From contig CAZKOO010000004.1 in assembly GCA_964554435.1 (NCBI GenBank), positions 2,116 to 66,115 of the forward strand: DNA of 64,000 bases, given 5' to 3'. Each line of letters opens with the position of its first letter. The stretch's first letter is position 1. Below are positions 8,631-63,470 of this stretch, one piece after another. The notes beneath the pieces are model-generated. The model ran no database searches, was not told the origin of the DNA, and saw nothing but the letters and a program-made list of their open reading frames with translations. The position numbers and the translations under genes were made by a program. Origin of the DNA: an uncultured Candidatus Peribacteria bacterium (lineage in GTDB: Bacteria > Patescibacteriota > Gracilibacteria > Peribacterales > Peribacteraceae).

Positions 8631-9729
8631 TCATCACCACCTCCTCATCTACCATCCCCGCACTCTGAAAACTCTCCCATGTCTTTGCTCCACCTTCGAC
8701 GAGAATTGAGCTAATGCCAAAGAAATGATCTGTTGGAGTGGTAAGAGCTTTCCACAGAGATGGGTAATCGAAATGATTGTCGTGATATGGGATTTCGATA
8801 ATTCTCACTCCTTTCTCTTGAAGAAATTTCTTTTTTTCTTTGACATCCGCAGGTAGAAACCTGCTCCCATGTTGCCTATTCTTCATCTCATTGATTTCTT
8901 TGTTTTCTTCGATTCCCTTGATTTCTTTTACACAAAGAATTGTCCTCTCCCTCCACTCATCACTCACCACCGTTGCATCGAGTGGGATGCGAAGGTGCGG
9001 ATCGAGAATAATACGATACGGTTGAAATATTCCCTCTCCCCTCGGGAGAGGGTTAGGCCTGCCCGCCGGAGCCCGAATGGCGTAGGTGGGGTGAGGGTAA
9101 CGTACTGTTAACTTCGGATCATCACTCATAATTGTGCCAACACCAACGAGAATGGCATCATGTGTTGCGCGGAGATTGAGATGTGCCCATTGGTCCTGCT
9201 CCTCTGATGTAATCTTGAGCGGAGATCCATCACTATTCGCAATACGCCCATCGCGTGTCATTGCTTTTTTGAGCGTAATCCACGGACGGCCCTTCGTTAT
9301 GAACGACACAAAGCCACGATTGAGGTACTGACATTGAGGCAAAAGAATAGGGCCAATTACTGTTACTCCTGCATCTTTCAACATCTGAATCCCCTTTCCA
9401 GAAACTTGAGGATTTGGATCGTTCATGCCATAGATCACCGTTTTCACTCCCCTTTCGATAACCATCTGTGCACACGGCGGAGTCTTTTTGTTCGTGTGAC
9501 AACACGGTTCTAGGTTGACGTACAGAATATCATCTGAACAAATTTTTTGATCAAATTTTTCCAATAGATGACGCTCTGCATGCGCACATCCAAAGCCTGC
9601 ATGCCACCCCTGCGCAATCACTTTCTCATCTCGCACTAATACAGCGCCCACAAGAGGATTGATGCCCGTCTTTCCTCTCCCGCGCTTAGCAAGAGAAAGG
9701 CAGTGGTGGATAAAATCTTGATGGGACAT
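8623..9729 (-). CDS. ribD: Riboflavin biosynthesis protein RibD (deaminase/reductase), with repeat insertions and a short C-terminus
   Basis: Deaminase Zn motifs (HAERHLL, PCCHTNKKTPPC) and a reductase domain (DPKLTVR...ILVEGGAKTW). It ends at VVMIN, about 45-50 aa before the usual C-terminus. The start was chosen at MSHQDF. Confidence 0.8.
   Translation of the reverse strand: MSHQDFIHHCLSLAKRGRGKTGINPLVGAVLVRDEKVIAQGWHAGFGCAHAERHLLEKFDQKICSDDILYVNLEPCCHTNKKTPPCAQMVIERGVKTVIYGMNDPNPQVSGKGIQMLKDAGVTVIGPILLPQCQYLNRGFVSFITKGRPWITLKKAMTRDGRIANSDGSPLKITSEEQDQWAHLNLRATHDAILVGVGTIMSDDPKLTVRYPHPTYAIRAPAGRPNPLPRGEGIFQPYRIILDPHLRIPLDATVVSDEWRERTILCVKEIKGIEENKEINEMKNRQHGSRFLPADVKEKKKFLQEKGVRIIEIPYHDNHFDYPSLWKALTTPTDHFFGISSILVEGGAKTWESFQSAGMVDEEVVMIN
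8845..8868 (-). repeat. REP hairpin copy (GGGAGCAGG-TTTCTA-CCTGCGGAT) inside ribD
   Basis: Same family as the hairpins flanking the RAYT gene. Translated in-frame as GSRFLPAD. Confidence 0.75.
9032..9097 (-). repeat. GC-hairpin element inside ribD
   Basis: CCCTCTCCC-ctc-GGGAGAGGG (9-bp stem) followed by GTTAGGCCTGCCCGCC...GGGGTGAGGG. Related copies lie at 27396-27434, 28823-28858, 33817-33873 and 50874-50932. Confidence 0.75.
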
Positions 9730-20817: not shown

Positions 20818-20930
20818 ATATATATTGACAATTTTTATCTATTTTGTCAAATTGAGCACATTTTTAAATCAATATAACTTATGATAACCGCAGGTGGAAA
20901 ACTTGCTGCTAAAGGAGAATTTTTTTAACA

Positions 20931-20952
20931 AACGCAGGTAGATACCTGCTCC
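20931..20952. repeat. REP hairpin copy
   Basis: AACGCAGGTAGATACCTGCTCC. A degenerate copy lies at 20886-20910. Confidence 0.6.
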
Positions 20953-27029: not shown

Positions 27030-27662
27030 TTAACCTGCTATCATCGCAAGAACCTTCGGGTACCACTCTTTTTCGAGTTCTTGCACCTTTTTCTGTAGTG
27101 TTTCCACTGTCTCATCTTCATCAATTGAACACTTTTTTTGTACAATAATTTCCCCTGTATCCACTCCTTCATCCATAAAATGGATGGTAACTCCAGATTC
27201 TTTTTCACCTGTCGCAAGCACTGCCTCATGCACATGGTGACCATACATCCCCTTTCCGCCAAATTTTGGAAGAAGTGCAGGGTGCACATTGATGATCTGT
27301 TTTGCCCATTTTTTGGTAAACCATGGAGAGAAGATCCACATCCAACCCATGCACGCGATAGAAAAGTTGATAGTTGATAGTTGATAGTTGATAGTTCCCC
27401 TCTCCTCGCGGGGAGAGGGGTTAGGGGTGAGGGCATGAATGGCACTATCAATTCTATGATCGTAGCTTTCACGATCTTCATCCTTCTGTTTTTCTACCAC
27501 GATGTAGGGCACATTGTGTGCTTTTGCTTTTTCAATACATCCACGATCGGCGCGATCGGTCACGAGACCAAGGCATGGATTGTTGAGTGTGCCGTTTTGA
27601 ATAGCATGTAGCGTTGCTTCGAATGTTGTACCGCGGGAAGAAGAGAGGACGATGAAGGACAT
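27030..27662 (-). CDS. purN: Phosphoribosylglycinamide formyltransferase
   Basis: 210 aa from MSFIVLSSSRGTTFEA, with INVHPALLPKFGG and GVTIHFMDEGVDTGEII motifs. Carries a repeat insertion. Confidence 0.85.
   Translation of the reverse strand: MSFIVLSSSRGTTFEATLHAIQNGTLNNPCLGLVTDRADRGCIEKAKAHNVPYIVVEKQKDEDRESYDHRIDSAIHALTPNPSPREERGTINYQLSTINFSIACMGWMWIFSPWFTKKWAKQIINVHPALLPKFGGKGMYGHHVHEAVLATGEKESGVTIHFMDEGVDTGEIIVQKKCSIDEDETVETLQKKVQELEKEWYPKVLAMIAG
27366..27434 (-). repeat. Composite element: 4x GTTGATA + GC hairpin + GGTTAGGGGTGAGGGC, inside purN
   Basis: Read in-frame as ALTPNPSPREERGTINYQLSTINFS. A sister copy lies at 28793-28858. Confidence 0.85.
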
Positions 27663-28132: not shown

Positions 28133-29278
28133 TTATAATTGCATCAAGAATTCATCAAACAAATATGCTGCATCTTCTGGCCCTGGTGTTGCTTCGGGGT
28201 GAAATTGAACCGAGAAAAATTTACCAGATTCGTGACGAATGCCTTCCACTGTTCCATCGTTCGCGTTTGTAAACCACACACTCCAACCCTGAGGTAATGT
28301 GGATGCATCCACAGCAAAGCCATGATTTTGCGATGTAATGATGCAACGATCGGTTGCCTTTCCATCTTTCCATTCAATGCATGGCTGATTCAATCCACGA
28401 TGACCATATTTGAGCTTGTACGTATCTCCACCAATCGCAAGCGAGAGAAGCTGATTGCCAAGACAGATGCCGAAGGTTGGAATGTTCTGTTCAATTGCCC
28501 ATTTAATCTGAGTAATTGTTTCGGTGCACTTTTTTGGATCTCCTGGCCCATTGCTGATGAAGAGACCATCGTACTGTAATGATGAATTCTTGAGATCATA
28601 GTTCCATGGAACACGATGCACACGAACGCCTCGAGAAAGCCACGAACGAAGAATGCCACGCTTAATACCACAGTCGTAGACAACCAGTGTTTTTGGCTCG
28701 AGTCCTTCTTCCTTCTTCTCTGGCTCGTAGGTCACAACATCGGTACATGACACCTCCGCAACGAGATTGAGATTGTTCGGATCTAGAAAAGAGTTGGTAG
28801 TTGGTAGTTGGTAGTTGGTAGTTCCCTCTTCCTCTGGGGAGAGGGTCGGGGTGAGGGCACACATTCTCCCCAGCATCACTCCATGTTCACGGAGTTTTTG
28901 CGTGAGAGCTCGAGTGTCGATGCCGGAAATGCCTGGAATGTTGTGATGAACCATCCACTCATGTAGAGAGCTGACGGCCTTATGATGACTAAACTCACGC
29001 ACTTCTGAACTCACGATAATACCACGGACTTGAACAGCCTCACTCTCAAAATTTTTACTAAACCCATACTCATTCTTCTCTTCGCTAGGAACGCCATAGT
29101 TCCCAACAAGAGGATAGGTAAACACGAGTATCTGTCCACGAAAACTTGGATCGGTCATGGAGTCGGGGTACCCAACCATGCCCGTTGAAAACACTACTTC
29201 GCCATCTGTATCAATAGGCGCACCAAAAGACTCACCTTCGAATACTGTTCCGTCGGAAAGAAGAAGAGAAGCTGACAT
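28133..29278 (-). CDS. carA: Carbamoyl-phosphate synthase small (glutaminase) subunit
   Basis: 381 aa with a CPSase small N-domain and a GATase triad context (ICLGNQLL, HGFAV, FSVQFHPEA). Carries a repeat insertion in the interdomain linker. Confidence 0.9.
   Translation of the reverse strand: MSASLLLSDGTVFEGESFGAPIDTDGEVVFSTGMVGYPDSMTDPSFRGQILVFTYPLVGNYGVPSEEKNEYGFSKNFESEAVQVRGIIVSSEVREFSHHKAVSSLHEWMVHHNIPGISGIDTRALTQKLREHGVMLGRMCALTPTLSPEEEGTTNYQLPTTNSFLDPNNLNLVAEVSCTDVVTYEPEKKEEGLEPKTLVVYDCGIKRGILRSWLSRGVRVHRVPWNYDLKNSSLQYDGLFISNGPGDPKKCTETITQIKWAIEQNIPTFGICLGNQLLSLAIGGDTYKLKYGHRGLNQPCIEWKDGKATDRCIITSQNHGFAVDASTLPQGWSVWFTNANDGTVEGIRHESGKFFSVQFHPEATPGPEDAAYLFDEFLMQL
28793..28858 (-). repeat. 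Composite element: 4x GTTGGTA + GC hairpin + GGTCGGGGTGAGGGC, inside carA
   Basis: Read in-frame as ALTPTLSPEEEGTTNYQLPTTNS. Same architecture, orientation and frame as the purN copy. Confidence 0.85.
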
Positions 29279-29326: not shown

Positions 29327-30069
29327 GAAGCAGGATTCTTTCCTGCGGTCCTTTTTATAAAAAAGATACTTCATATCTTCATTTCTAATGGAGTCACATC
29401 CCATTTTCATGATGCAGAAGACCAAGGATAATCAGATTGACAAAAAGCAATGCCAGCTTTCACAGGATTGGCATGAATGTATGAAAGCACATTGTGTGCA
29501 TCATCTGGAAAAAGAAGGTGAAATCGTGATTGCCAAATTGGTCCTCGATCGATTGCAAATGCAGTTCCCCTTTTGAAGGTATACAATATTTTTGAGATTG
29601 ATCCATTGTCTGGAACACTAACTAAAAGATGTACATGATCTGGCATTATTGCAAATCCATAGAGAAAAAATGGAAAAATTTGCTGAGTACGATAGAGTGC
29701 AAGGACTGCTTCATTTGCATAAGCTGGCACTGAAAAAATAGTCTCTCTGTTTTGGGTATTTGTTATAATAAACATGATGGCACTATGCTGGATAGGATGT
29801 CTTTGAAAAGCCATATGTGTCATTGTAGAACAACCGCGCGAAGGAATCGCGCTCCTGTTTGTGTAAAACTTTGATGATCTCTCAATTTTTTGCTATCTAT
29901 AATCATTTTTTTAGTTCTGTGATGAAAAAGAACAGCTTAAAAAGAAGAAATAGTGTATAAAAGAAGATGCAAGACCACGCGAAAGAATCGCGCTCCTATT
30001 GTAATAAATTGAGATAAACGGTGGCAGGCTTATCATAAAAAACGGGAGCAGGATTCTTTCCTGCGGTCC
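29327..30069 (-). mobile_element. REPtron: RAYT gene bracketed by REP hairpins
   Basis: REPs lie at 29327-29352 (+), 29833-29856 (rc), 29974-29997 (rc) and 30044-30069 (+). The consensus is GGAGC(AGG/GCG)-ATTCYTT-(CCT/CGC)GCGG. Confidence 0.75.
29407..29823 (-). CDS. REP-associated tyrosine transposase (IS200/Y1 HUH family)
   Basis: 138 aa with HUH motif MPDHVHLLV and a catalytic Tyr context SYIHANPVKAGI. Confidence 0.8.
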   Translation of the reverse strand: MTHMAFQRHPIQHSAIMFIITNTQNRETIFSVPAYANEAVLALYRTQQIFPFFLYGFAIMPDHVHLLVSVPDNGSISKILYTFKRGTAFAIDRGPIWQSRFHLLFPDDAHNVLSYIHANPVKAGIAFCQSDYPWSSAS

Positions 30070-38355: not shown

Positions 38356-40542
38356 CTACAGCCATCTTTTTGAGATGAAGGAACCTGCAATTCCTGCAAG
38401 GAGAGATAGTGCAACAGATGATAGACCTCCTTTTCCTTCTCTCTGTTCTGGTTCTTGTGTCAGTTCAAGTGTTGGCGTGTGCTGCTCTGCAAGAAGATCT
38501 TTCCGATACATCTCCGTGTAATAGACTTGTTTTTTACTGGTTTTCTTTGCAACTTTCTTCTTTACCGCTTTTTTCGATGATACTTTTTTCTCTTTTTTCG
38601 ATCCGTCATCATTCTTTTTCTGCATGGATGTGTCTTCTCCAATCTTTTCTTTAGTCTCATTTTGTACTATTTCTTCCTCATCACTTTCTTGCCATATTCC
38701 AAGGCTTTTTTCTTGAGAATCCTTCTCTGCTTGTGTATACTCTGACCTTCTTTTGTATTCTTTCTTCTTTTCAGCTTCTAACAGACCAATACTGATCAAC
38801 TCTTTCGCACTATCTTTCATGGTAGAATTTGAAAGATATGCTTGTAATTTTCCTTCTTTTGACCACAATTCTGTATCAAATTGTAGTTCAACTTTTTGAT
38901 CTTTTAAAAGGGCTCGAATAGTTTCTACTACTTCACTATTTTCCTCTGAAAATAATGCTCCAATCATCTGAAGAGGAATTTGCTCTTCGTTAAAGTATTT
39001 CTGAGCTGAAAGATCTGGTTGAAACAGGAGTGTTCCGTCGTCAAAGACTTCTACAAGTGTTCCGGTTATTTCTCCATCTCTACAGTCAGCGGAGTAATAC
39101 CTTCTCCCCTCTTCTGCTTTCTCCCAATCAATCGTCGAGACAGAAGCATCGAGTGGTGACACCAGCGTGACATGGCCAATGCTATTTGGAAGACTGATCT
39201 TCATTTCGCTAGAAAACAATATCCGCTCTTCACTTGGTGCAAGATCTCCTGTGAGTGCATACGTCGATAGCGTCGTATTACCAATCTTGAGCTTCCAGCC
39301 ACTCAAATGTACTGTGTCCTCTCCTCTATTTTTAATGATGACGGATTCTTTTCCACTATCGACTGAGTCGGGGTTTGGTAGTGCGGAAACGAGGAATAGA
39401 TTTGCAAAGGGTGAAGGATACGTGATAGGCATGCCGTCCGAGAGTGAGGCCTGCTTTGATGAACTCAGGACAATCTCTTTTGTCAAAATAGATGTTCCAC
39501 AGCTATTCTTCGCCTCGAGCGTCACCTGCGTTGTACCAATCTGGACAAACGCATGCGGTGGTGGATTACAACTCTCACTTGTGTATCCATCGGAAAACGT
39601 CCAATGACATGTACTGTCGGAAATGGACCCTGTGATGGCAACCGCCTGAAAGTTGACAGTGGTTTTATCGATACCAGTGAGTTCTCCGTCTTGGATGATG
39701 ATGGAAAGATTGGGAAGGAAACATTCAGAGGTTATAGGTTCTAGGTGATAGGCACTAGAAGCAAATGATGATTCAGGGGAGACAGATGGAGAAGAATCAG
39801 AGGAAGCAGAGGAAGCAGAAGAGGCAAGGGATGAAGAGGAAGTAGAGGAAAGAGAGGATGTGATTGACGGAGAAGAGACAGATGATGCAGGCGATGATTG
39901 CATACTTGATGATAAGGAACTATCGACGAGCAGAGCGGCATTTCTTGCCGCGATGTCAGATGATACAACAGCAAATGATGACACCGAATTCTGCACACCA
40001 GGCGTTGCAAGAACATTTGCACCGCCATCCATGTTGATTATCTCAATTGCTGATGACCAGTTTGAGGCATCAATTCCTGAGCCAAGTGGATCGATGCGCT
40101 CCATGCTTGCCTTCACTCCACCACTAGGATTGAGCCCTGCAAACGGGTTCCCCACCGCATCATCCACAGTATCAATGAGCAAAGAAGATTGATCAAATAA
40201 TTTGATCAATAATTTTGTATTCGGAAGAGAAATACTTGTAGTGACGAGAAAAGGATCGATGGCAAGACGCGAAGAATGTTGATCTTTATTCGAAAGAATA
40301 ATGTACTCATTGGGCGCGATCACTGACCCACTGGGAAATGTCACCATCACGCTTTCTTGTCCTGTGCTTTTGAGTGAAGTGATGGTGTAGCCAGAAAGAT
40401 CAATTTCAACGTGATCGGGATTATAGAGCTCTATCCATTCATCAGCAGTACTCAGGTCACTCCCCATCCACATCACTTCATTAATCACAACGTGCGCAGA
40501 GCAGAGAGATGGTATCAGAAAGAGAAATGCTGAAAGCATCAT
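38356..40542 (-). CDS. Membrane-anchored lamin-tail-domain (x2) protein with SNase-like C-terminal domain
   Basis: Signal peptide MMLSAFLFLIPSLCSA. LTD motifs VVINEVMWMG...EWIELYNP...LSGYTI and ALPNPDSVDSGKESVIIKN...LSGWKL. An SNase-like block (LQAYL...ELISIGLLEA...SLGIWQ), a Ser-rich linker and a C-terminal TM. Confidence 0.7.
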   Translation of the reverse strand: MMLSAFLFLIPSLCSAHVVINEVMWMGSDLSTADEWIELYNPDHVEIDLSGYTITSLKSTGQESVMVTFPSGSVIAPNEYIILSNKDQHSSRLAIDPFLVTTSISLPNTKLLIKLFDQSSLLIDTVDDAVGNPFAGLNPSGGVKASMERIDPLGSGIDASNWSSAIEIINMDGGANVLATPGVQNSVSSFAVVSSDIAARNAALLVDSSLSSSMQSSPASSVSSPSITSSLSSTSSSSLASSASSASSDSSPSVSPESSFASSAYHLEPITSECFLPNLSIIIQDGELTGIDKTTVNFQAVAITGSISDSTCHWTFSDGYTSESCNPPPHAFVQIGTTQVTLEAKNSCGTSILTKEIVLSSSKQASLSDGMPITYPSPFANLFLVSALPNPDSVDSGKESVIIKNRGEDTVHLSGWKLKIGNTTLSTYALTGDLAPSEERILFSSEMKISLPNSIGHVTLVSPLDASVSTIDWEKAEEGRRYYSADCRDGEITGTLVEVFDDGTLLFQPDLSAQKYFNEEQIPLQMIGALFSEENSEVVETIRALLKDQKVELQFDTELWSKEGKLQAYLSNSTMKDSAKELISIGLLEAEKKKEYKRRSEYTQAEKDSQEKSLGIWQESDEEEIVQNETKEKIGEDTSMQKKNDDGSKKEKKVSSKKAVKKKVAKKTSKKQVYYTEMYRKDLLAEQHTPTLELTQEPEQREGKGGLSSVALSLLAGIAGSFISKRWL

Positions 40543-47227: not shown

Positions 47228-47255
47228 CAGAGAGGCTTTTCTAGCCGCGATTGGT

Positions 47256-50932: not shown

Positions 50933-50940
50933 AAGACATT

Positions 50941-50961
50941 CTCAGGTAGATACCTGCTCCC
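50941..50961. repeat. REP hairpin copy
   Basis: CTCAGGTAGATACCTGCTCCC. Confidence 0.6.
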
Positions 50962-53319: not shown

Positions 53320-53662
53320 GAAGAATAATCTTGATTCATTGTATTTTTCCACTCGATCTTTTACTTGTACCGTATATTTTTACATACTGTACTACTACGC
53401 CAGTACAGTAGTATTTGGATCATTTTCATTCAATCAATCTTTCATCATTTTTTTGATGCTAGAATAAGATCTTACTTAAAGCATAATTTGATGATTCTAT
53501 TTTTTGATATTTGTACTTGTGTACTAGTACGATAGTACAGGATTCCGGCAGGTAGTTGGTAGAGCGATGAATCACGTCTCTACAGTCCCTATTCATTTCC
53601 TTACATACCTTACATCCATTATCTTTCCTTTGAATCGTCTGATTCTTTTGTTTCTTCTCAAC

Positions 53663-53729
53663 CCTTCATTCATCATCCGCAGGTAGAAACCTGCTCCCTT
53701 TTTATTCTTACCTTCCTTACCTACATTAC
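53663..53729. repeat. ~70-bp module containing a REP hairpin
   Basis: CCTTCATTCATCATCCGCAGGTAGAAACCTGCTCCCTTTTTATTCTTACCTTCCTTACCTACATTAC is similar to 63293-63369. Confidence 0.7.
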
Positions 53730-53743
53730 TTCCCTTACCTTCC

Positions 53744-63173: not shown

Positions 63174-63277
63174 GGTAGGTAAAGTAGGTATGGAAGGTAG
63201 AGTAGGTATTGTAAGTATGGAAGGCGACAAAAGAATTTTTTCCTTACATCCCTTACCTGCCTGACCTACCTTACCTT
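63174..63277. repeat. Opposed word arrays (GGTAGG/GGTAAG dialect)
   Basis: GGTAGGTAAAGTAGGTATGGAAGGTAGAGTAGGTATTGTAAGTATGGAAGG ... TCCTTACATCCCTTACCTGCCTGACCTACCTTACC. Confidence 0.7.
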
Positions 63278-63292
63278 CTTTTGCATCTTCAT

Positions 63293-63369
63293 CCTTCATT
63301 CATCATCCGCAGGTCATCTGACCTGCTCTGTTTTATTCTTACCTCCCTTACCCACCTTACATACATTAC
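63293..63369. repeat. Second copy of the ~70-bp REP-containing module
   Basis: CCTTCATTCATCATCCGCAGGTCATCTGACCTGCTCTGTTTTATTCTTACCTCCCTTACCCACCTTACATACATTAC. Confidence 0.7.
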
Positions 63370-63470
63370 CGTCGTCTGTTTCTTCTTATTCCCCTGACTC
63401 TTCTGCTTCCTTATTTCCAACTGTCTCGGCATAGCTCTTTGAGAGCGACGACGGATTGATTTCATTAAAT

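Follow-up and report, generated by a model that had tools for sequence, protein, structure and literature searches.

A RAYT gene bracketed by REP hairpins in a Candidatus Peribacteria genome: a probable REPtron in the candidate phyla radiation

REP-associated tyrosine transposases (RAYTs) and their repetitive extragenic palindromes (REPs) have been placed by published surveys in Proteobacteria, Cyanobacteria, Bacteroidetes, the Planctomycetes-Verrucomicrobia-Chlamydiae (PVC) group and others, with REPs that carry GT[AG]G feet (PMC6006769, PMC3733652, PMC5581495). The complete-genome sample of Quentin et al. 2018 held no genomes of the candidate phyla radiation (CPR) (PMC6006769), and our full-text literature searches found no paper linking RAYT to the CPR or to Peregrinibacteria. 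For the E. coli enzyme, TnpA-REP, two bases of the GTAG foot, A3 and G4, are the only ones available for pairing with the CT cleavage site, and it is unclear what part G1 and T2 play (PMC3479197). Here we describe a RAYT locus found in a 64-kb stretch of DNA from an uncultured Candidatus Peribacteria bacterium; this whole stretch is what we call the window. We interpret the locus as a REPtron, that is, as a gene for a RAYT (an HUH/Y1 single-strand DNA nuclease) bracketed by its cognate REPs, and we put the probability of this reading at about 0.85. The RAYT/REP interpretation offered by an initial annotation of the same DNA is thus supported, with qualifications that concern REP doublets (REPINs), intragenic repeats and the atypical character of the window copy.

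The RAYT gene is encoded on the minus strand of the window as an open reading frame (ORF) of 138 amino acids (aa), at 29407-29823(-), with a TGA stop at 29407-29409. Comparison with its paralogs suggests that translation probably starts at M4 (29812-29814). The initial annotation had recognized in this ORF the HUH and Tyr motifs, and both are present, HVH at aa 63-65 (29629-29637) and YIHANPV at aa 115-121 (29461-29481). Searching the window for GGAGCRSGATTCYTTCSYGCGG with up to three mismatches returned exactly four sites, 29327-29348(+), 29834-29855(-), 29975-29996(-) and 30045-30066(+), while 100 dinucleotide-preserving shuffles returned none, confirming that hairpins bracket the ORF at the positions first proposed. 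Folded as single-stranded DNA, each site forms a stem of 6 bp and a loop of 5 nt, at free energies between -6 and -9 kcal/mol (z-scores -2.7 to -4.0). All have the form GGAG-stem-loop-stem-CGG and, just as had been described, two stem types (GCAGG/CCTGC and GCGCG/CGCGC) share the same flanks and loop.

Read 5' to 3' on the coding strand, the locus begins with an inverted REP of type A1 (30045-30069(+), GGAGCAGGATTCTTTCCTGCGG+TCC), followed after 48 nt by a forward REP of type A2 (29975-29996(-), GGAGCGCGATTCTTTCGCGTGG) and after another 119 nt by the other forward A2 (29834-29855(-), GGAGCGCGATTCCTTCGCGCGG), which ends 10 nt before the first ATG. The RAYT gene then runs through its TGA, and 58 nt beyond the stop codon lies a further inverted A1 (29327-29351(+), GAAGCAGGATTCTTTCCTGCGG+TCC), whose foot is mutated to GAAG. 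The A1 at 30045-30069 and the A2 at 29975-29996 form an inverted doublet with a 48-nt spacer that resembles a bacterial interspersed mosaic element (BIME) or REPIN. We rejected the idea that this doublet forms a single long hairpin, as it folds no better than shuffled sequences (z -1.2 to -1.6). An Rfam search at the locus gave no match.

The window gene belongs to the RAYT family and has the RAYT fold. In the profile search that the initial annotation had proposed as a check, the protein scored above the cut-off with Pfam Y1_Tnp (36.5 bits vs 23) and, marginally, with NCBIfam NF047646 (REP-associated tyrosine transposase, REP_Tyr_transpos; 80.8 bits vs 80, model positions 6-146). Its score with the IS200 model NF033573 was 27.7 bits, under the cut-off of 55. 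A phmmer search of the PDB produced a sole match, the E. coli TnpA-REP structure 4ER8 (E 1e-7, aa 7-136), in an alignment that takes in the HUH, IWQ.RF and Y..NP (Y..NPVK) motifs and sets HVH and YIHANPV against H59/H61 and Y115 of 4ER8. The structure was modelled with AlphaFold2 from 67 homologues on a 71%-identical paralog from contig C24 rather than on the window copy (pLDDT 93, pTM 0.87). The best PDB match of this model was again 4ER8 (E 1.6e-11, TM 0.79), followed by ISDra2 (E 2.4e-6, TM 0.57), and IS200/IS605 TnpA structures as a group reached TM 0.50-0.58 with E ~1e-6.

Beyond the locus, REPs share one general form: NNAG is followed by a stem of 6-7 bp that begins with GC, a loop of 3-7 nt rich in T, the second arm and CGG. 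In an alignment of 47 distinct REPs the positions A3, G4, C5, G19 and G21 are invariant, the last two being the Gs of the 3' GCG. Compensatory changes distinguish the stems of the subfamilies. Because the selection pattern demanded pairs 6-8 with 17-19, these are not evidence of this, whereas the unconstrained pair 9-16 was UA in 27 REPs, CG in 12, AU in 6 and unpaired in 2. Since ATG or TTG directly follows 59/121 REPs and AAC or TCA precedes many, the repeated unit extends a few bases past the 22-mer. At window position 8847, a REP stands immediately before a possible start codon.

A loose pattern (AGC, three paired bases, loop, GCG) matched the genome 154 times against 39-56 times in simulated genomes. 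We dropped it because this background was too high, and therefore used a subfamily census and a covariance model. The census, which counted copies within 3 edits of 11 subfamily consensus sequences, was run on the genome assembly (G000; 979 kb, 51 contigs, 43.7% GC) and on three Markov-shuffled genomes as controls. It found 122 REPs in the genome and 0 in the shuffled genomes, so the hairpin family is over-represented genome-wide, a census that the initial annotation had called for. Families ranged from 2 to 35 copies: the A family accounted for 32, and the commonest subfamily, B2, had 35, of which 19 were identical 22-mers. By crude ORF calls, 108 of the 122 REPs were extragenic in a genome whose non-coding share is only ~12%, and most of the 13 'intragenic' ones fell within small, doubtful ORFs. 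REPIN doublets, whose dominance the initial annotation had asked to be tested, do not dominate: 71 REPs were singlets with no other REP within 200 nt, and only 16 inverted pairs were found, 8 of them at the five REPtrons of the genome, several of the remainder mixing families.

These five REPtrons correspond to five RAYT genes detected by tblastn on contigs C4 (the window), C24, C9, C22 and C2, all with the HUH and Tyr motifs. Identity to the window RAYT is 71% for the C24 protein of 147 aa and 45-46% for those of C9, C22 and C2, and the four paralogs score 87-98 bits with NF047646. Near-identical RAYT copies were absent from the genome by tblastn, and no adjacent tnpB was present. Each gene is accompanied by its own REPs: A1 and A2 with a GGAG foot at C4, A1 and A3 with the same foot at C24, B1 and B2 with AGAG at C9, C1 and C2 with GCAG or GTAG at C22, and D1 with AGAG at contig C2. 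A1 is common to the C4 and C24 genes, and the REPtron doublets pair two different subtypes in inverted orientation. The pattern is one of a single gene per REP class, free of recent self-duplication, the nearest paralog standing at dS (synonymous divergence) 0.86 with dN/dS 0.21. A sixth, distant Y1_Tnp-like ORF was noted at C2:30264-30791(-), where the RAYT profile aligns with a 278-aa frame in two segments (E 8e-10 and 5e-6); it represents a longer divergent class that is present in relatives too, in some cases within very long ORFs.

We then considered a comparison set of 41 genomes, made up of this one and its relatives. The NF047646 family is present in 30/41 genomes and above the curated cut-off in 21/41. 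With the REP covariance model this genome gave 107 matches, ten relatives gave 11-82 each and the remaining 30 genomes 0-6. A close RAYT clade, defined as proteins of 143-156 aa ending in ...WSSASGKWDV... among the loci above the cut-off, occurs in 13 genomes, 11 of which are exactly the genomes with at least 10 REP matches, while none of the 28 genomes lacking the clade reaches 10. A hypergeometric estimate for this split is ~2.5e-8, although the genomes are related and the figure is hence no clean probability. Based on these findings, we conclude that the abundance of REPs in these related genomes goes hand in hand with the presence of this RAYT clade. The layout also recurs in many relatives: 17-25 nt separate a forward REP from the ATG downstream of it, 0-30 nt separate the stop from an inverted REP, and the feet are AGAG, GGAG, GYAG or CNAG. 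Close pairs in the RAYT tree share a foot type (15 label changes vs 23 when shuffled); a foot-specificity code cannot be claimed from this, as the deep branches of the tree are unresolved.

The genome, called CPR-like in the initial annotation, belongs to the CPR: its nearest genomic matches are 'Candidatus Peribacteria bacterium' metagenome-assembled genomes (MAGs). The RAYT homologues with a named source are from Candidatus Peribacteria, Peregrinibacteria and Peribacteraceae. A few homologues are already annotated in databases as 'REP element-mobilizing transposase RayT'. One contig of the JGI metagenome 3300079086 (L056) holds a RAYT 73% identical to that of the window and surrounded by the same A1 REPs. 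Just before its ATG lies a REP with the same flanks as in the window but with a GCAGG stem in place of GCGCG, and the gene adjoins an ISL3 transposase and a RelB/YafQ pair, not carA. In the same contig (2560-2700), the loop of an A2-type REP (GGAGCGCGATTCC...CTTCGCGCGG) is split by a GC-rich insert of ~75 nt. We also compared the tRNA-Arg/ribBA spacer with L056 as a filled and an empty REP site and rejected this pairing, because the ~300-nt indel also holds a duplicate of the tRNA 3' end. The spacer (C19:8635-9057) has ~300 nt more than L056, with a second tRNA 3' end (CCTGCCGGAAGCACCA) and an A4 REP, and this extra sequence resembles a scar left by an element that had integrated at the tRNA.

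Another relative, G004, carries two nearly identical RAYTs (L031 and L040, tree branch lengths 0.05 and 0.09), and no NNAG-foot REP was detected beside either of them. The pair may have arisen by recent duplication, or it may reflect strain heterogeneity in that MAG.

The window RAYT differs from its relatives at the C-terminus. Its ORF ends in ...WSSAS-TGA, and the in-frame codons beyond it, KWDVTPLEMKI-TGA (29371-29406(-)), are an 11-codon remnant of the conserved tail, with the final stop at the same place as in the C24 paralog, whose tail reads ...WSSASGKWDVSPLEMQM. The motif SASGKWDV is kept in every other clade member inspected, the 73% orthologue included, and the TGA sits at its conserved Gly; in the 67-sequence alignment S135, G136 and D139 are each at least 90% conserved. 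Genetic code 25, in which TGA encodes Gly, occurs in related lineages. We rejected this decoding here, as reading through TGA adds a median of 10 codons, no more than reading through TAA or TAG. TGA is an ordinary stop in this genome, and we therefore attribute the truncation to a GGA-to-TGA change. The change is probably recent, since the tail codons differ from those of the paralog mostly synonymously and the core shows a dN/dS of 0.21.

In E. coli TnpA-REP, the C-terminal tail blocks the active site and its deletion raises cleavage (PMC3479197). The tails of the two proteins are not alignable. The loss of the tail may leave the window copy deregulated, weakened or decaying, and the premature stop offers a natural comparison with the autoinhibitory tail of the E. 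coli enzyme.

Several observations weigh against the interpretation of this locus as a REPtron, and most of them concern the window copy, which is the least typical of the five RAYTs, with low-copy cognate REPs and a truncated C-terminus. Its A2 REP is found at the locus only, and A1 has 8 genomic copies, 3 of them at the two GGAG REPtrons. The genome holds 3 copies of the best 16-mer flanking the gene, which places it at the 60th percentile among all genes, compared with 30 occurrences (94th percentile) for the C9 paralog and 8 for C2 and C22; the window copy thus lacks the abundant 16-mer by which Bertels et al. 2017 recognize such genes, in a genome whose background is inflated by heptamer arrays. 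The NF047646 score of the protein lies right at the cut-off, and the loss of the tail through the TGA means that it could be inactive. In addition, the feet depart from the canonical GT[AG]G, being GGAG in the window and AGAG, GCAG or GTAG elsewhere, and some REPs resemble intrinsic terminators.

The truncated gene may be read as a decaying pseudogene within a relic REPtron that has ceased to act, with the four full-length paralogs maintaining the REPs. We take this as a serious possibility, albeit on balance a doubtful one. The ordinary TGA stop at a Gly conserved in at least 90% of 67 homologues speaks for it, together with the adjacent A1/A2 REPs, which are the least amplified, and the mutated GAAG foot of the downstream A1. 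On the other hand, the catalytic core is intact and under purifying selection, the codons after the TGA are still readable and mostly synonymous relative to the paralog, so that the stop would be recent, and removal of the tail in E. coli raises cleavage rather than abolishing it (PMC3479197). A different concern is whether the unit of REP, RAYT and inverted REP could be an autonomous IS200-type insertion sequence (IS), the dispersed hairpins then being solo ends or miniature inverted-repeat transposable elements. The forward and inverted hairpins do bracket the gene as tightly as IS200 ends, five RAYT copies occur in one small genome, the relative G004 has its nearly identical pair, and the L056 orthologue sits in a different gene neighbourhood. 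An IS is nevertheless quite improbable given that the closest pair in the genome shares only 71% protein identity at dS 0.86, that the ends differ copy by copy, that TnpA-REP rather than IS200 TnpA is the nearer match by both fold and profile, that no tnpB is present, and that the hairpins, mostly singlets, outnumber the genes by ~24:1.

The hairpins might instead be mainly host regulatory elements, such as terminators or mRNA-stabilizing stem-loops, that have come to look alike through selection and lie next to a transposase gene by accident. All four local REPs score terminator-like, with a stem followed by a T-run, as do several A4 and D2 copies, and REPs are about twice as dense between convergent genes (1.7 vs 0.8 per kb). 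However, an A- or T-run is suitably placed in at most 33/121 copies, 19 copies lie between divergent genes, and relative to co-directional genes there is no bias in orientation (22:22) or in position (24:20). Identical 22-mers recur in up to 19 copies, termination would need neither the invariant, asymmetric foot (AG) nor the tail (CGG), and the abundance of the hairpins follows the RAYT clade across genomes. We thus regard a mainly regulatory origin as very improbable indeed, while some REPs, the four local ones included, may terminate transcripts.

If the locus is a REPtron, its activity may be pictured by analogy with E. coli TnpA-REP. The enzyme would bind a REP as a folded single-stranded hairpin plus the 5' foot, and A3 and G4, the invariant bases of that foot, would select a CT dinucleotide as the cleavage site; cleavage would pass through a 5'-phosphotyrosine intermediate and could be followed by rejoining of the strands (PMC3479197). 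Such cleavage and rejoining might spread or maintain the REPs, with the RAYT gene itself presumably stationary and domesticated, not mobile like an IS. By the same analogy, a fixed AG combined with family-varying positions 1-2 appears to fit the E. coli mechanism.

As the initial annotation had listed, related hairpins are dispersed through the window near 8845, 20931, 50941, 53675 and 63307, and these proved to be four REPs of type A4 (GGAGCAGGTWTCTACCTGCGG) and one of type D2. The A4 copies are found on the minus strand at 8847-8867 (GGAGCAGGTTTCTACCTGCGG), at 20932-20952, at 50940-50960 (with 3 mismatches) and at 53677-53697 (followed by a T-run on the plus strand), and the D2 copy (AGAGCAGGTCAGATGACCTGCGG), which has an AGAG foot, at 63307-63329(-). 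Three further hairpins were absent from that list: a degenerate C3-like REP at 20888-20909(-), in direct orientation with the neighbouring A4 (20888-20952 for the two), and two B2 copies at 39932-39953(+) (2 mismatches, inside a crude 764-aa ORF call) and 47229-47250(+) (1 mismatch). The D2 copy at 63307 has the same flanks as the A4 at 53677 around a different hairpin. Three loci (53640-53740, 63270-63370 and C32:2920-3020) have ~40 nt of flank in common on each side of differing REPs, A4 (53677), D2 (63307) and D2 (C32:2956), and the swapped module is exactly the foot, hairpin and CGG.

A hint of intragenic REP copies in the initial annotation was not borne out. Both carA (about 28793-28858) and purN (about 27366-27434) contain in-frame inserts, but these were rejected as REPs after comparison and belong to a different repeat family, in which a CCCTCTCC/GGAGAGGG-type hairpin is fused to AACTACC/AACTATC heptamers. 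Tandem arrays of 7-nt units fill the spacers of this genome. REPs of the B family, the type of the C9 RAYT, lie beside such period-7 arrays in 25/46 cases (for example C10:4524, C15:21713, C33:150 and, in the window, 47229-47250), compared with 14% for random intergenic sites and 6/76 for the other REP families. The B-family hairpin often stands at the junction of two different heptamer arrays. A separate repeat of ~100 nt, with the core ...CATGAACAGTGAATACAAAGCTCATCAAGGCGACAAATGTA..., occupies 27 genomic sites (for example C1:83639, C2:41827 and C8:37006), none of them in the window.

A bolder reading would see several orthogonal RAYT-REP systems in this genome, with foot positions 1-2 (GG, AG or GC/GT) and the stem serving as an address by which each REP family is assigned to one RAYT paralog, A3/G4 setting a common cleavage dinucleotide, and the B-type/C9 system mechanistically tied to the growth of the heptamer arrays. 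We consider it unlikely. If it were true, it would give a function to foot positions 1-2, which the E. coli work has left unexplained, and would show where heptamer arrays resembling the cyanobacterial STRR repeats come from.

Altogether, these findings describe a known kind of element in a lineage for which we found no published description, and they leave the understanding of that kind of element unchanged. With five REPtrons and some 122 REPs in a reduced genome of ~1 Mb, and with the trait shared across its family, it follows that genomes of the streamlined episymbiont type still retain this repeat machinery, and in multiple copies. The short hairpins, in which only A3 and G4 of the foot are fixed, make a compact natural series for testing how RAYTs choose their hairpins, and the locus is well suited to documentation as a CPR REPtron.

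Compared with known systems, the locus shares with the TnpA enzymes of IS200/IS605 elements (IS608, ISDra2) the same superfamily and chemistry and the recognition of a hairpin with a guide tetranucleotide. It is set apart from them by a weaker profile and fold match, the absence of tnpB and of near-identical copies, and solo hairpins that far outnumber the genes. A likeness is also seen with the REP-associated subclasses of Quentin et al. 2018 (PMC6006769), among them the short-REP TnpAY1 subclass 2.5, as far as their descriptions allow comparison: the REPs are short, with a foot and a ~10-nt stem, the W and Q of the guide motif are conserved, and there is more than one REP subfamily per gene in a REPtron-like arrangement. 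The canonical REPs of that study, unlike those described here, carry GT[AG]G. As in the REPIN-RAYT systems of P. fluorescens SBW25 and the multiple REPtrons of Stenotrophomonas maltophilia (PMC3116915, PMC3686654, PMC5581495), several RAYTs coexist with one REP class each, the RAYTs are diverged rather than duplicated, and the REPs are extragenic. In contrast to those systems, singlets dominate, the families are small (2-35) and the host is a reduced CPR genome.

The closest match in both sequence and fold is the REPtron of E. coli K-12 (tnpA-REP/yafM/rayT, with y and z REPs arranged as BIMEs; 4ER8; PMC3479197). There are differences from it: the Peribacteria hairpins are far shorter (6-7 bp perfect stems, 22-23 nt) and have no stem bulge, foot positions 1-2 are GG, AG, GC or GT where E. 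coli has GT, and a conserved CGG tail, often followed by ATG or TTG, stands 3' of the stem. The C-terminal tail of the clade is short (GKWDV plus ~6 aa) and is missing in the window copy, the window RAYT has Ala in place of His123, which is a metal ligand of the E. coli enzyme, and there are five paralogs in ~1 Mb compared with one RAYT in 4.6 Mb. The two systems nevertheless have in common an HUH/Y1 nuclease of ~140-165 aa with a conserved IWQ.RF guide-binding motif, a gene flanked by REPs of alternating orientation with doublets of two subtypes, as in BIMEs, and a 5' tetranucleotide foot with invariant A3/G4, the two bases that in E. coli select the CT cleavage site (PMC3479197).

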